Virus record (IMG/VR): IMGVR_UViG_2974575442_000001
Length of the DNA stretch: 58,074 bases
Direction: 5' to 3' (one strand)
From: Streptomyces virus Karimac
Lineage: Duplodnaviria; Heunggongvirae; Uroviricota; Caudoviricetes
Positions 14,240 to 31,049 of the stretch are shown one piece after another; within the stretch, counting starts at the first letter, position 1, and every line of letters begins with the position of its first letter. The notes below the pieces were generated by a model. It was given only the letters and a program-made list of their open reading frames with translations, was not told the origin of the DNA and did not search any database. The position numbers and the translations under genes are program-made.

Positions 14240-14393
14240 TTTCCGCCAACCAATCATGCATCGCTTTGATTATGTCTGACTGCTTAGTAGCCTCTGCGTG
14301 ATTCTTCTCTCTACGAGCACGCATAAATGACTTCTGAGCAGCCTCAAGTATTCGATTAGCTTCGTTCACATTCCTAGGCTTAGGAGTCGCCAC
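14232..14393 (-). CDS. Hypothetical protein (53 aa)
   Basis: Translated by hand (MATPKPRNVNEANRILEAAQKSF...). Confidence 0.65.
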   Translation of the reverse strand: MATPKPRNVNEANRILEAAQKSFMRARREKNHAEATKQSDIIKAMHDWLAENG

Positions 14394-14526
14394 AGGTTAT
14401 CCCTTCTGGAAGAGTCCCAAACCTAACAAACAGGTCATACTCTTCGGATGTCATTCCTAAGAACTCATGGAGTGGCAGAGGGCTGTCACCTTCATGCCAC
14501 TCCTCAATGAGGTCGTCTATGTTCAT
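14380..14526 (-). CDS. Hypothetical protein (48 aa)
   Basis: Translated by hand (MNIDDLIEEWHEGDSPLPLHEFLGMTSEEYDLF...). Confidence 0.7.
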   Translation of the reverse strand: MNIDDLIEEWHEGDSPLPLHEFLGMTSEEYDLFVRFGTLPEGITCGDS

Positions 14527-14920
14527 GTCACTAGAGTGTCACAGCTTCTGTCACCTGTCAAGGTGACATTCGTGACAGAGCAACCGTGATCGTATTGGCA
14601 GGAATGTCACGTCCCTTGATGTCACTAATCAGCTTTCGCAGTTCAGCTTTGTCACGGGTTCCGTCATCCCATAGCTCCTTGACCAGGCGTGACACGCTCT
14701 TTTGCTTGTCATCTGTCACGTCACGACGTGGAATCTCTGTCACTGTTGTCACGATTGGAGTGACATTTTCATTCGTCTTGACAGGCGTGTCACCCTTTGT
14801 CATGACAGGCTTTGTCACGCTCTTGTCATCTGTTTTGTCACGCTTGTCACGTGACATTTTCTTAGGTGTCACCGGCTTGTCACGCTTGCGTGACAGACTT
14901 TCACCTGTCACGTTTGTCAC
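14484..14920. repeat. Dense array of TGTCAC/GTGACA hexamers (24 perfect, at least 7 with one mismatch)
   Basis: Perfect copies at 14484, 14526, 14537, 14549, 14563, 14572, 14605, 14620, 14650, 14689, 14714, 14738, 14747, 14760, 14788, 14813, 14836, 14845, 14851, 14867, 14878, 14890, 14906 and 14915. About 0.2 copies would be expected in 437 bp under uniform base composition. Confidence 0.95.
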
Positions 14921-15442
14921 GACTTCATTGAGCCGGAAGAACACGACGTTCTTGAATCCCTTGAATGTCTTCCAAGGGAAGATCATCCAGCTTACCTTGC
15001 CGAAGACTGGCATACGCTTGGGAACCAGTCCATTGGAACGCATCTCTGAACGGTGCACAAAGCGCAGGTACAATTCGAACAATACACCTGCGATAACAGG
15101 AGGGGCACCGAAAAGAACTTTTCCAGGAGTCCCGTAGTTAAGCAGCGCTGCATGCTCTACGTTCAGATATACAGATGTTCCTACAAATGCGTAAGTGGCC
15201 AGCTTTGGAGCTAGACCACTATCTTCTGTTCGAGCGTACTTGGATGCAAGGTCAGCGACAAACAAAGCAGCACCGTCGAATGCAATACTCACTCCGAAAG
15301 CCAGTTCCTTGGGAACTCCGTAGAATTCCACAGCCATTGAATATAGGCTCCACCAACTCAAAGCAAGAGCAACGATTAGCACTGATCCGAATGAAACTGC
15401 GCCTCTCCAGTCCATAAGACGCTTGAGGTCGGGCTTTTTCAT
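14558..15442 (-). CDS. DUF2637-like multi-pass membrane protein with a low-complexity linker and a possible C-terminal HTH
   Basis: About four TM segments with SWWSLYSMA..YG......VSIAFDGAALF and APPVIAGVLFE, which resemble DUF2637 of actinomycete mobile elements. Start ATG 15442 (AAGGAG SD). Confidence 0.7.
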   Translation of the reverse strand: MKKPDLKRLMDWRGAVSFGSVLIVALALSWWSLYSMAVEFYGVPKELAFGVSIAFDGAALFVADLASKYARTEDSGLAPKLATYAFVGTSVYLNVEHAALLNYGTPGKVLFGAPPVIAGVLFELYLRFVHRSEMRSNGLVPKRMPVFGKVSWMIFPWKTFKGFKNVVFFRLNEVVTNVTGESLSRKRDKPVTPKKMSRDKRDKTDDKSVTKPVMTKGDTPVKTNENVTPIVTTVTEIPRRDVTDDKQKSVSRLVKELWDDGTRDKAELRKLISDIKGRDIPANTITVALSRMSP

Positions 15443-15457
15443 TGGTCTCCTTATAGA

Positions 15458-15489
15458 CAAAAGGCAGGCCACCCTTTTGGGTGGCCTGC
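15458..15489 (-). terminator. Intrinsic terminator after dps
   Basis: GCAGGCCACCC-AAAA-GGGTGGCCTGC followed by CTTTTG on the - strand. Confidence 0.8.
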
Positions 15490-15500
15490 TATTCAGTTGT

Positions 15501-15902
15501 TTATCGTGATGACTCTGTAAACATCCAGAGCCACTTATCGACGCCGCGCTTAGTTTCAATGAGTACATCTTGCGTAGCGAGATCGTCGGTAATATTAAAG
15601 ATAGCACCTGAGAGAACCATTGTCAAGTTCTCAAGAGAAGACTTGATTCCGTTTACTGCCTGTGCGTATGAGACTGATTCGCCAGAGAATTCATAAGCGA
15701 CCTTTGGTGCAAGATACATTTCTCTTGCACGTGCTCTTTCGGCAATTGTATCGGCATACTCGGTGATATCATCATTAAGTTCATCTAGCTTCTCATGAAG
15801 ATAGAAAAACTCCTTACCTCGGAGATTCCAGTGGTTCTCCTTGACTGCCAAGGAGAGGATTAGCAACCACTCTAGAATCTCTTCTAGCTTGTGTTCTAGC
15901 AC
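15501..15902 (-). CDS. dps: Dps / mini-ferritin family protein
   Basis: HWNLRGKEFFYLHEKLDE...DTIAERAR is the Dps signature. It also has DLATQDVL...DKWLWMF. GGAGGT SD with GTG start. Confidence 0.9.
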   Translation of the reverse strand: MLEHKLEEILEWLLILSLAVKENHWNLRGKEFFYLHEKLDELNDDITEYADTIAERARAREMYLAPKVAYEFSGESVSYAQAVNGIKSSLENLTMVLSGAIFNITDDLATQDVLIETKRGVDKWLWMFTESSR

Positions 15903-29688: not shown

Positions 29689-30558
29689 ATGGAAATTTAC
29701 AGAGACACTTCTGGCGTGGCTACGCTGGAGCATCCAGTTACAGGAACGCTAACCGCTGATATTTATCGCGGTGACGAAGTGCTTTCTACAAACCTACCAG
29801 TAACGTCATCCAACGGAATTCACACTGTCCAAATCAACTGGCAGTACACAGAATACGATGGAACGTTGAAGATCGTATGGAAGCAGACAGGATTTCAGCG
29901 AGTCACTTGGGTTGATATTGTGACTCCGATTGTTCCTCTTTCTGCACTGAACAATCTTCTAGATGGCGTATCCACAGAAGACCAGTACGACGCAGAAAGG
30001 ATCGTACGAAGGATCATTGAGGTTTACACTGGGCAGACTTTCGGAAAGTTCAGAGGAACCAAGGAAGTCACAGGTAACGACAGCACTCAGCTAGCCCTTC
30101 CAACGCCTCTCCTGTCATTTACAAATATGTCAGACGATATGTTCGTCTACGAGCCTTCTTCATTTGTTATCAGAGGTGAAGGATGGTTCCTAGGAGGAAA
30201 GCCCGGCGCGTACTGGACGATCAAGGATGCACCACCTGATGATGTCCTTGATGAGTTCAACAATGTAATCTACGCACCAGGCGTTGTTCCGAAGAGAGAC
30301 TTTAAGTACACATCTGTTTACACAATCATTGGTGACTGGGGATATGAATCAGTTCCCGTCGCAGTTGTTGAAGCAGCAAAGCTATTGATTTCAGATTACG
30401 CTTGCCAGGACAGTGCCTACAGAGATAAGTACCTCAATTCAATGAAGGCTGCCGACTGGAGAATTGAATACACTCAGGCGGCATATGACGGAACTGGAAA
30501 CCTAAAGGCAGATCAGCTTCTAAATCCATATAAGCTAAGCAACATGGTGGTAATATGA
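29689..30558 (+). CDS. Head-to-tail adaptor
   Basis: Position; AERIVRRIIEVYTGQTF and GDWGYESVPVAVVEAAKLL; leaderless start. Confidence 0.75.
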   Translation: MEIYRDTSGVATLEHPVTGTLTADIYRGDEVLSTNLPVTSSNGIHTVQINWQYTEYDGTLKIVWKQTGFQRVTWVDIVTPIVPLSALNNLLDGVSTEDQYDAERIVRRIIEVYTGQTFGKFRGTKEVTGNDSTQLALPTPLLSFTNMSDDMFVYEPSSFVIRGEGWFLGGKPGAYWTIKDAPPDDVLDEFNNVIYAPGVVPKRDFKYTSVYTIIGDWGYESVPVAVVEAAKLLISDYACQDSAYRDKYLNSMKAADWRIEYTQAAYDGTGNLKADQLLNPYKLSNMVVI

Positions 30559-31049
30559 GCTGCCTCATTTCATCAAGGTTCAATATGCGGGCAACTGTTC
30601 TTCGTCAGGCAGGAACCAATCCACAGGAAAATCCCGGTGGACATTGGGAGACTGTGCAAGATCCAGATTCTGGCGCAATTGAAAGAGTATGGGTACCAGA
30701 CGAAGACAACACTACACCTGGGGACCAGACCCTTGTTATCAAGTGTATGGTAAGAGGTGTAACAAATGGAGGTATTCGTGCAGCAGGAACCACTCAGAGG
30801 TTTTCTGAAATCTATGAAAATGTTGACTGGGCGATCATTCAATTCCCTGCATCAGTTGTTCTCAGCAAGTACGACAGAGTTACCAACATCTCAAACTCAA
30901 AGGGACAGCTCATCTGGCGAGAAGAAGAAATCAATCAAGCGCCAGCTACTGTATTCCAAGTTATGGGATCTACTCCCGTAATCGATCCATTCGGAAATCA
31001 TATCGAGAATACAGCACTATTGCAGAGGGCACAGGTTCAGAGTGGCTAA
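30555..31049 (+). CDS. Head-to-tail stopper/closure protein
   Basis: Synteny and size; ATGA coupling. Confidence 0.65.
   Translation: MSCLISSRFNMRATVLRQAGTNPQENPGGHWETVQDPDSGAIERVWVPDEDNTTPGDQTLVIKCMVRGVTNGGIRAAGTTQRFSEIYENVDWAIIQFPASVVLSKYDRVTNISNSKGQLIWREEEINQAPATVFQVMGSTPVIDPFGNHIENTALLQRAQVQSG

Follow-up and report, generated by a model that had tools for sequence, protein, structure and literature searches.

SpdA2 of plasmid pIJ101 binds a palindrome, sps (CGTCACGTGACG), that lies within its own coding region, and synonymous recoding of sps leads to plasmid instability equal to that caused by deletion of the gene (PMC4170104). TraB is membrane-located, and its C-terminal part recognises short repeats in a plasmid-specific cis site, clt, as in pSVH1 and pJV1 (PMC4447253). 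The locus described here, from a 58,074-nucleotide stretch of phage DNA (the window), resembles both systems; as with sps, sites that are kept at the DNA level and that can encode S-R-D lie in the coding region of the (here candidate) binder, and as with clt, element-specific short repeats are clustered at the gene of the candidate binder. SpdA2 is unrelated to the window protein, being small and soluble with an N-terminal binding domain and no membrane anchor; it has one to three palindromes as opposed to the 24-30 half-sites of the window phage, and sps is the same across many plasmids, whereas the motif of the window family varies by lineage. TraB is an FtsK-like hexameric ATPase pump, whereas Pfam detected no ATPase domain in the window protein, and the TRS are 8-bp direct repeats, in contrast to the sites of 5-7 bp (6 bp in the window), in both orientations, of the window family.

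The repeats of clt are located at the 3' end of traB or close to it, and each plasmid has its own repeat. In phage lambda, four 19-bp ori iterons occupy the interdomain-linker part of gene O, which encodes a soluble initiator, and are accompanied by an AT-rich stretch. Noc of Bacillus subtilis is a ParB-family peripheral membrane protein with many specific NBS sites that acts on the host chromosome, and p16.7 of phi29 is membrane-attached and binds DNA non-specifically. The window gene is comparable to gene O in that sites lie within the linker-coding part of the candidate binder's gene, and differs in having approximately 30 hexamers, no AT-rich stretch, an integral membrane protein as its product and a second array elsewhere. 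The likeness to Noc and p16.7 lies in the proposal made here that a membrane-attached protein brings DNA to the membrane; the sites of those systems are not known to lie in the binder's own gene, and neither protein has sequence kinship to the window protein.

The gene occupies positions 14558-15442 of the minus strand (stop codon included) and encodes 294 amino acids, as defined by its open reading frame, Pfam PF10935 and tblastn. Its product is identical to gp32 of Streptomyces phage IchabodCrane (100% tblastn match), where gene 32 is annotated 'membrane protein'; the IchabodCrane record, 99.2% identical, served as the whole-genome reference for the window. Residues 23-165 matched DUF2637 (PF10935; E 2.3e-6), the score of 28 bits exceeding the gathering cut-off of 22.8, and the same family is precomputed on homologues of the protein; NCBIfam and PADLOC assigned it to no family. 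A single-sequence fold was poor (pLDDT 45) and was set aside in favour of an AlphaFold2 model built on a 39-sequence alignment. In this model the DUF2637 core (residues 6-136; 15035-15427, minus strand) forms four transmembrane helices (6-40, 45-70, 77-100 and 105-136; pLDDT 73-84), residues 180-243 (14714-14905, minus strand) form a disordered linker without secondary structure (pLDDT 30-43), and residues 244-294 (14561-14713, minus strand) form a domain of three helices (250-259, 265-276 and 282-292; pLDDT ~82), hereafter the tail, which is a candidate sequence-specific DNA binder. The N-terminus and inner loops are basic, so that by the positive-inside rule the C-terminal half is probably cytoplasmic. 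A strong hairpin resembling an intrinsic terminator (15464-15489, minus strand; 11-bp stem with 9 GC pairs, followed by a T-run) lies 22 bp upstream of the start codon.

The tail gave no match in Pfam, PDB profiles or the ESM Atlas, and sequence and profile searches detected no kinship with known DNA-binding families. ClpC and GGA were the best PDB profile matches (E 0.03-0.25) and were rejected as noise, and hhalign of the tail against the C-terminus of the TraB-type protein of pIJ101 gave a probability of 1.4%, that is, no similarity. Foldseek of the whole model against the PDB returned nothing at E<=0.001; VIA-align wide yielded only generic helical-bundle matches over residues 6-143, the transmembrane domain dominating the fold searches. 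One PHROG match was to an 'excisionase' family, and other DUF2637 branches terminate in canonical HTH-like sequences. An earlier reading of the window, made from the sequence only, had predicted a DUF2637-like protein of about four transmembrane helices, a linker made by the array and a possible C-terminal HTH; the first three features stood, and for the possible HTH the model gives a three-helix bundle without a family match.

Array 1 spans 14484-14920 and contains 24 perfect copies of the hexamer TGTCAC/GTGACA, with an extended consensus of TGTCACG; on the plus strand, 18 read TGTCAC and six GTGACA. The remaining 57.6 kb of the window contain 26, a background at which ~0.2 would be expected per 437 bp (Poisson P ~1e-41), and the pentamer TGTCA/TGACA occurs 30 times in the array as against 1.08 times per 400 bp elsewhere. 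There are also 16 one-mismatch matches, ~11 of them separate sites (for example TGTCAT four times, TGTCAA, CGTCAC, TTGACA and ATGACA). Spacing follows no strict period; intervals of 9 bp occur four times and those of 11 and 12 bp twice each, the others ranging from 6 to 42 bp. At 14845-14856 lies, as had been noted, a 12-bp palindrome, TGTCACGTGACA, which encodes M-S-R-D and is present once in the window. It is identical to sps of pIJ101 (CGTCACGTGACG) at 10 of 12 positions, the two sharing the core GTCACGTGAC and both encoding S-R-D; the other array sites are single half-sites. When the array was scanned for promoters and terminators, the matches were all weak and made of the hexamers themselves.

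Twenty of the hexamers lie inside the gene, six of them in the DNA encoding the three-helix domain, and they are spread over four frame and orientation classes: GTGACA in frame 0 (seven, all coding VT), GTGACA in frame 1 (seven; RDK four times, GDT, SDI and RDI), TGTCAC in frame 1 (five; LSR twice, MSR, VSR and MSP) and TGTCAC in frame 2 (one; NVT). The remaining four, at 14484, 14526, 14537 and 14549 (span 14484-14554), are past the stop codon (14558-14560); they fall in the 31-bp gap and in the opening codons of the next gene, one hexamer overlapping the ATG of that gene (14524-14526), and these post-stop sites are kept in relatives. The count of 24 within 437 bp in both orientations, the use of several frames and the four sites past the stop all agree with the sequence-only reading.

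Array 1 is under selection at the DNA level, as that reading had argued. When codons were resampled by genome usage, 2.7±1.5 hexamers were obtained (maximum 9 in 5000 resamplings), and synonymous permutation within the gene gave 6.9±2.0, as compared with the 20 observed. VT is spelled GTGACA in seven of its eight occurrences in this gene, a spelling that falls outside the top eight for the 63 VT dipeptides elsewhere. Relative to phage Yaboi, divergence was 2.1% in hexamer columns and 20.9% in the other columns of the array (Fisher p 5e-9); four other phages showed the same conservation of hexamer columns, with turnover of single sites. In close relatives, conservation of the hexamer columns is roughly tenfold that of neighbouring columns.

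A second array is present in the BE phages. In IchabodCrane, whose genome is ~131 kb, array 2 lies in an intergenic gap (78364-78520), 64 kb from array 1 and unlinked to it, and it numbers ~17 sites in close relatives. Closely spaced hexamer pairs were confined to these two loci in five other BE phages, and a reversed-pattern control gave none. Array 2 is located just upstream of a TTGACA-type promoter and is followed by a GC block and, ~60 bp away, an AT-rich stretch; its position and density vary among BE phages. The motif make-up of array 2 tracks that of array 1. In BE1-type phages the ratio of TGACA to GGACA is 30/0 in array 1 and 17/0 and 11/0 in array 2. Array 1 of the BE2-type phages, of Tomas and of Coruscant additionally contains 11-21 copies of GGACA, and Mildred21, Peebs and Coruscant, the three counted for array 2, carry 3-9 copies there also. 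Helix 3 of the tail reads NTITVALSR in BE1 and NTVNKAVSR in BE2.

Arrays are a trait of the family, and their motif changes together with the C-terminal domain and, in the BE phages, with the unlinked array 2. For each lineage the commonest 6-mer was compared with synonymous permutations, the motif not being preset; enrichment reached z 4.5-9.9 in all lineages except the plasmid pNO33 (CGGCACA, z 3.2). The BE phages use GTGACA, three satellites (Mulchroom, L034 and L035) ACGACA and phage Kromp CGGACA, while TGAGCGC, GAGACC, CGGTCC, CGCCAC and CGCATCA are found in a family of ~92-kb plasmids. The arrays of relatives sit in the 3' half of the DUF2637-tail gene and use several frames, in both orientations except in the satellites. 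Across the BE phages, satellites, Kromp, pNO33 and ~92-kb plasmids, ten types of C-terminal domain each have their own motif, with zero exceptions; the motif is constant within a tail type (15 of 15 genes in the five motif groups headed by the ~92-kb plasmid family, all three satellites and all BE phages) and differs between tail types even where the N-terminal domains are 51-72% identical. Co-variation of the hexamer with the C-terminal domain among homologues was a test set beforehand, and its outcome was clearly positive.

Since the array and the tail-coding DNA are adjacent, part of this co-variation could reflect linkage rather than function; the linkage is broken only by the second arrays, in the BE phages and Kromp. 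Array and DUF2637-tail gene go together in lytic phages, a temperate phage, satellites of 12-15 kb, a T4SS plasmid and the ~92-kb plasmids, and this gene is the sole constant partner of the arrays; some family members (BillNye, L017) are without an array. Within the searched parts of the genomes, no tail paralogue was encoded outside this gene, and no candidate regulator was common to all contexts. An FtsK/TraB-like gene was rejected as the common binder because none was found in Mulchroom, Kromp, pNO33 or the L036 provirus. SpdA, whose type is marked by 50 conserved N-terminal amino acids, was likewise rejected, as tblastn against 50,697 phage records found no homologue of pIJ101 SpdA2 at E<=0.01.

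The most likely reading, to which we assign a probability of roughly 0.58, is that the tail binds the array hexamers and thereby tethers the DNA of the element to the membrane. The protein would then consist of a four-helix DUF2637 anchor, a flexible cytoplasmic linker of ~65 residues and the small three-helix tail, and the tail would read GTGACA (extended, CGTGACA) as a monomeric half-site in either orientation. With ~30 such sites in the stretch of the protein's own gene that encodes linker and tail and in the 75 bp that follow the gene, many anchored tails could engage clustered sites, so that the DNA of array 1 and array 2 would be pinned to the cytoplasmic membrane. Protein and sites would form a self-contained module comparable to TraB/clt, SpdA/sps and ParB/parS. 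The sequence-only reading had likewise proposed that the protein binds its own gene in cis and anchors the genome; the co-variation, the DNA-level selection and the predicted architecture support that proposal, but given the second array at a distance of 64 kb, a scope restricted to the protein's own gene is too narrow.

Two alternatives rank lowest. We give practically no credence to the repeats being a by-product of a low-complexity linker peptide or of replication slippage, without function in the DNA. The linker is indeed disordered, with many V, T, R, D and K residues, but that composition arises because the densest part of the array overwrites the linker codons, and the spread over four frame and orientation classes, the sites beyond the stop, an intergenic second array, the synonymous-codon tests and the better preservation of hexamer columns than of their surroundings together refute a peptide repeat or slippage. 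The other, raised by the sequence-only reading itself, is that the array serves host regulators of the OmpR family (GlnR, MtrA and AfsQ1), which recognise GTNAC-n6-GTNAC, as a decoy or landing pad. GTGAC and GTCAC fit GTNAC, and the 11-bp spacings pointed out earlier at 14526/14537 and 14867/14878 are present; they account for just 2 of 23 intervals, however, 9 bp being the commoner spacing as had also been remarked. We disfavour this explanation and hold it very unlikely because elements sharing a host differ in motif: on S. lividans, BE phages have GTGACA and Kromp CGGACA, Mulchroom has ACGACA in the very cells infected by its helper, and TGAGCGC, GAGACC, CGGTCC or CGCCAC occur on plasmids of the same genus. 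The motif follows the tail domain of the element, not the host.

Two further alternatives rank higher. The arrays might be iteron-type replication origins and the DUF2637 protein a membrane-anchored origin binder, which would still bind its own gene; we regard this as unlikely, though deserving of consideration. Its sites would be within the DNA that encodes the interdomain linker of the presumed binder, as in lambda O, the pairing of protein and site would be element-specific, like that of Rep and iteron, and array 2 is followed by the GC block and AT-rich stretch. Satellites reported to lack key replication genes (PMC10690885) retain the DUF2637 gene with a motif of their own. Array 1, however, has no AT-rich unwinding stretch (AT content <=60% in every 40-bp window of 14300-15500), the half-sites are of 5-7 bp in mixed orientation as against iterons of 17-22 bp, and the position and density of array 2 are variable among BE phages. 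The protein matched no initiator family in Pfam, PHROGs, NCBIfam or PDB sequence searches, its short relatives can lie directly downstream of FtsK/SpoIIIE-family genes, and we know of no precedent for an integral initiator with four transmembrane helices. Slightly less probable is that the hexamers are operators of a separate, soluble phage regulator, acting as a roadblock, sink or enhancer, and that the membrane protein is not their specific binder. The Kromp motif occurs as operator-like palindromes between the divergent HTH and repressor genes of the immunity switch region, so that in Kromp the binder could be a soluble regulator; the promoter just downstream of array 2 and the overlap of the last array 1 sites with the start of the next gene are also compatible with operators. 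Nevertheless, the array accompanies the DUF2637-tail gene across unrelated contexts, its motif switches exactly with the tail type, neither a tail paralogue nor a shared regulator turned up in the searched parts, and 24-39 sites are far above what an operator needs.

If tethering by the tail is the function of the arrays, its purpose would be, in order of preference, the passing of DNA to a TraB/Spd-like translocation or positioning apparatus in hyphae, the organisation of replication at the membrane, or regulation. Private words that change with the tail suggest a hitherto undescribed mode of retaining mobile DNA at the cell membrane, and we found no published description of this pairing of array and tail. 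A more specific scenario, which we consider speculative and improbable, is that in BE phages the DUF2637 protein grips the genome at both arrays and passes the DNA to the TraB-like, FtsK-type ATPase of the phage, by which naked DNA would cross hyphal cross-walls into adjacent compartments without virions; satellites and ~92-kb phage-plasmids would possess their own versions with private words.

Binding of the arrays by the tail would make this a compact, portable module for fixing chosen DNA to the membrane, in which a flexible linker joins the anchor to a specificity domain and the coding sequence of the linker itself carries the docking sites; ten or more natural specificities exist. DUF2637, a large actinobacterial family without an assigned function, would gain a first mechanistic handle, and Streptomyces phages, satellites and conjugative plasmids would be linked by a common handling of DNA in hyphae. 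The gene would also be a clean natural case of two overlapping codes shaping one coding sequence. Domain swaps between the specificity pairs offer a direct test of the idea.

The chromosomal DUF2637 proteins share the four-helix Pfam domain with the window protein and can occupy the position of spd genes behind TraB-type genes, but differ in being short (open frames of 223-283 amino acids) and in the phage gene being distant from its TraB-like counterpart; in IchabodCrane the TraB-like gene 108 is at 74.2-76.0 kb and the DUF2637 gene at 14.2-15.0 kb, ~60 kb apart. Used as negative controls, the chromosomal genes had no array, in an ORF-based test that is noisy in high-GC DNA. The sequence-only reading had placed DUF2637-type proteins among the spread genes of actinomycete elements. 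For pIJ101 this did not hold, as SpdB matched no Pfam family at E<=0.1, DUF2637 included, and neither did SpdA or KilB; the association is nonetheless seen in two Streptomyces genomes, where 4 of 18 chromosomal DUF2637 matches lie directly downstream of FtsK/SpoIIIE-family (TraB-type) genes, and in L070, where a DUF2637 relative adjoins a traB-type gene.

The DUF2637 membrane protein gene (15442..14558, minus strand; 294 aa) contains at its 3' end the dense TGTCAC/GTGACA array claimed by the sequence-only reading: 24 perfect hexamers (~0.2 expected) were located in 14484-14920 (array 1), versus 26 in the remaining 57.6 kb of the window, and TGTCA pentamers numbered 30, versus ~1 per 400 bp elsewhere. 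The hexamers are irregularly spaced and share the extended consensus TGTCACG. Mapping of hexamers to codons confirmed that different reading frames are used; the 20 in-gene copies fall into four frame/orientation classes (VT; RDK/GDT/SDI/RDI; LSR/MSR/VSR/MSP; NVT), and four more follow the stop codon, one of them overlapping the ATG of the next gene.

When the peptide was held fixed and codons were drawn from the phage's own usage, 2.7±1.5 in-gene hexamers were obtained (maximum 9 in 5000 draws), compared with the 20 observed; even a shuffle of synonymous codons within the gene gave only 6.9±2.0. Of the 8 VT dipeptides in the gene, 7 are written GTGACA, a spelling that does not rank in the top eight for the 63 VT dipeptides elsewhere. 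Aligned against five relatives, the hexamer columns proved three- to tenfold better conserved than other array-region columns at 86-96% protein identity (Yaboi: 2.1% versus 20.9% divergence, p 5e-9), and 1.6 times more conserved in Tomas (71% protein identity, p 0.0018). Against Yaboi and the locus L018 they were also several-fold more conserved than the transmembrane part, and in the other three comparisons about as conserved as it; individual sites have been gained and lost between relatives. Together, codon resampling and column conservation bear out the earlier proposal that selection on array 1 acts on the DNA rather than the peptide.

The product scores above the Pfam DUF2637 cut-off, and an alignment-based AlphaFold2 model contains four transmembrane helices (6-136), in agreement with the sequence-only reading, followed by two juxtamembrane helices (146-179), a disordered linker (180-243) and a C-terminal three-helix bundle (the tail; 250-292, pLDDT ~82). 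The linker coincides exactly with the densest part of array 1, in line with the earlier description of a linker made by the array. Because the N-terminus and inner loops are basic (positive-inside rule), linker and tail are probably cytoplasmic. The proposed helix-turn-helix (HTH) character of the C-terminus fared less clearly: a three-helix bundle is predicted, but the tail matched no family in Pfam, PDB or Atlas. Other DUF2637 branches terminate in textbook HTH-like sequences, one PHROG match of the protein is to an 'excisionase' family, and an HTH would be a reasonable guess.

Both arrays in homologues and co-variation of the hexamer with the C-terminal domain, for which the sequence-only reading had suggested looking, were found, the motif sorting by domain type. 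Every phage examined of cluster BE has 13-26 hexamers at this position (motif GTGACA), and more distant homologues have arrays of other words at the same place in the gene: ACGACA in the satellite Mulchroom and two 12-13-kb viral contigs, CGGACA in the temperate phage Kromp, CGGCACA in the T4SS plasmid pNO33, and TGAGCGC, GAGACC, CGGTCC, CGCCAC or CGCATCA in a ~92-kb Streptomyces plasmid family. Every array surpassed its own synonymous-permutation maximum statistic (z 4.5-9.9; 3.2 for pNO33), with several frames used in each and, except in the satellites, both orientations. BillNye, the locus L017 and ten chromosomal DUF2637 loci gave no array in the same test, which therefore does not fire by default. 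The C-terminal domain sequence predicted the motif without exception in 15/15 genes of five motif groups headed by the plasmid family, in 3/3 satellites and in all BE phages, while N-terminal domains can be 51-72% identical between different motif groups.

Tail and array are adjacent in the DNA, and linkage could explain part of this co-variation; unlinked sites were, however, also found. At 99.2% identity, the window matches IchabodCrane, a lytic Streptomyces siphovirus of cluster BE, genus Karimacvirus (~131 kb, 49% GC; record position + 403 = window position). Outside the window, 64 kb from array 1, a 335-bp gap after IchabodCrane gene 118 (a DUF3307 membrane protein) holds array 2, with 17 TGTCA sites in ~160 bp including GTGACATGTCAC (78364-78520; L014:5365-5521); beyond it come a GC-rich block, then AT-rich sequence and a TTGACA-type promoter. 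Array 2 is conserved in the same region in four of five other BE phages examined, varying in position and density; the dense cluster was not found in Tomas. Closely spaced hexamer pairs in five further BE phages were confined to the two array loci, and a reversed control pattern gave none. Both arrays contain only TGACA in BE1-type phages, whereas BE2-type phages, Tomas and Coruscant have GGACA in addition in array 1, and all three of them for which array 2 was counted have it there as well; the third tail helix reads S/N-K-A-V in the GGACA-bearing phages versus T-V-A-L otherwise. In Kromp, too, the motif is found again at a distance of 21 kb, where it forms operator-like palindromes, TGTCCGCGAACGCGGACA and TGTCCGCGGACA, in the immunity switch region (L053:1729-2250; record 30228-30749); these lie between the HTH gene and the divergent 'immunity repressor' gene, and at the repressor gene's 3' end. 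Since unlinked sites co-vary, no tail paralogue was found elsewhere in the phage, and no FtsK/TraB-like gene is shared by all the elements that carry an array, the simplest candidate for a binder of the arrays would be the DUF2637 gene's own product.

The closest precedent for own-gene sites is pIJ101 SpdA2, which binds the palindrome CGTCACGTGACG (sps) within the gene that encodes it; recoding sps synonymously causes the same plasmid instability as spdA2 deletion (PMC4170104). The pIJ101 sequence indeed has two copies of sps (8140 and 8173), both inside the spdA2 ORF (L052:7970-8377, minus strand), an ORF absent from the record's distributed gene table. The window palindrome has the same 10-bp core and also encodes S-R-D. 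No SpdA homologue was found in the phage records; the likeness is one of logic, and perhaps DNA shape, not ancestry. A binder with sites in its own gene is thus known; what would be new is a membrane-integral candidate binder with a private word per lineage. Among the papers searched, those that mention DUF2637 do not deal with its function.

In each element the word matches the element's own protein, a pattern characteristic of self functions that act in cis (partition, transfer, replication or packaging). It is not characteristic of exclusion or of a decoy, and the suggestion that the array titrates host OmpR-family regulators was not borne out. Among self functions, context favours a role in Streptomyces dsDNA transfer or spread: in 4 of 18 cases from two genomes, a short DUF2637 gene immediately follows an FtsK/SpoIIIE-family (TraB-type) gene, and the plasmid homologues have TraA-like or FtsK-like genes after them. 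IchabodCrane encodes outside the window a 603-aa FtsK-like ATPase, the 'FtsK-like DNA translocase' (record 74220-76031; L014:1221-3032). In NCBIfam it scores best against TraB, a plasmid transfer protein (E 1e-7, far below cut-off), and Pfam FtsK_SpoIIIE does not detect it. That the arrays are replication origin sites is a weaker reading, given that array 1 lacks an AT-rich element, and is kept as the main rival because satellites reported to lack replication genes (PMC10690885) retain the DUF2637 gene.

From the offsets of repeated matches, the direct terminal repeat measures 12,187 bp, which places the gene ~2 kb inside the unique region. The leftward-transcribed block comprises, in order, a ferritin/Dps-like gene (15501-15902, minus strand; Pfam Ferritin E 1.8e-8, PHROG 'DNA binding protein'), a terminator, the DUF2637 gene, small ORFs and ThyX. 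The terminator-like hairpin is strong (15464-15489, minus strand) and lies 22 bp upstream of the DUF2637 ATG; no promoter was found between the two, and expression would appear to need read-through from a promoter-like site at 15598-15626. The ferritin/Dps-like neighbour is kept in the BE phages examined, separated from the DUF2637 gene in Samisti12 by an endonuclease VII gene and a small ORF. An inserted endonuclease VII/HNH gene in Samisti12 (L009:735-1487) and in EGole sits immediately upstream and overlaps the DUF2637 gene's 5' end, so that the protein's N-terminus is replaced. DUF2637 genes of a family of Streptomyces plasmids or phage-plasmids, ~86-97 kb going by the length of the contigs (L015, L038, L040, L041, L061-L069), share an N-terminal domain and have swapped tail-plus-array modules, with TraA-like or large ORFs downstream.
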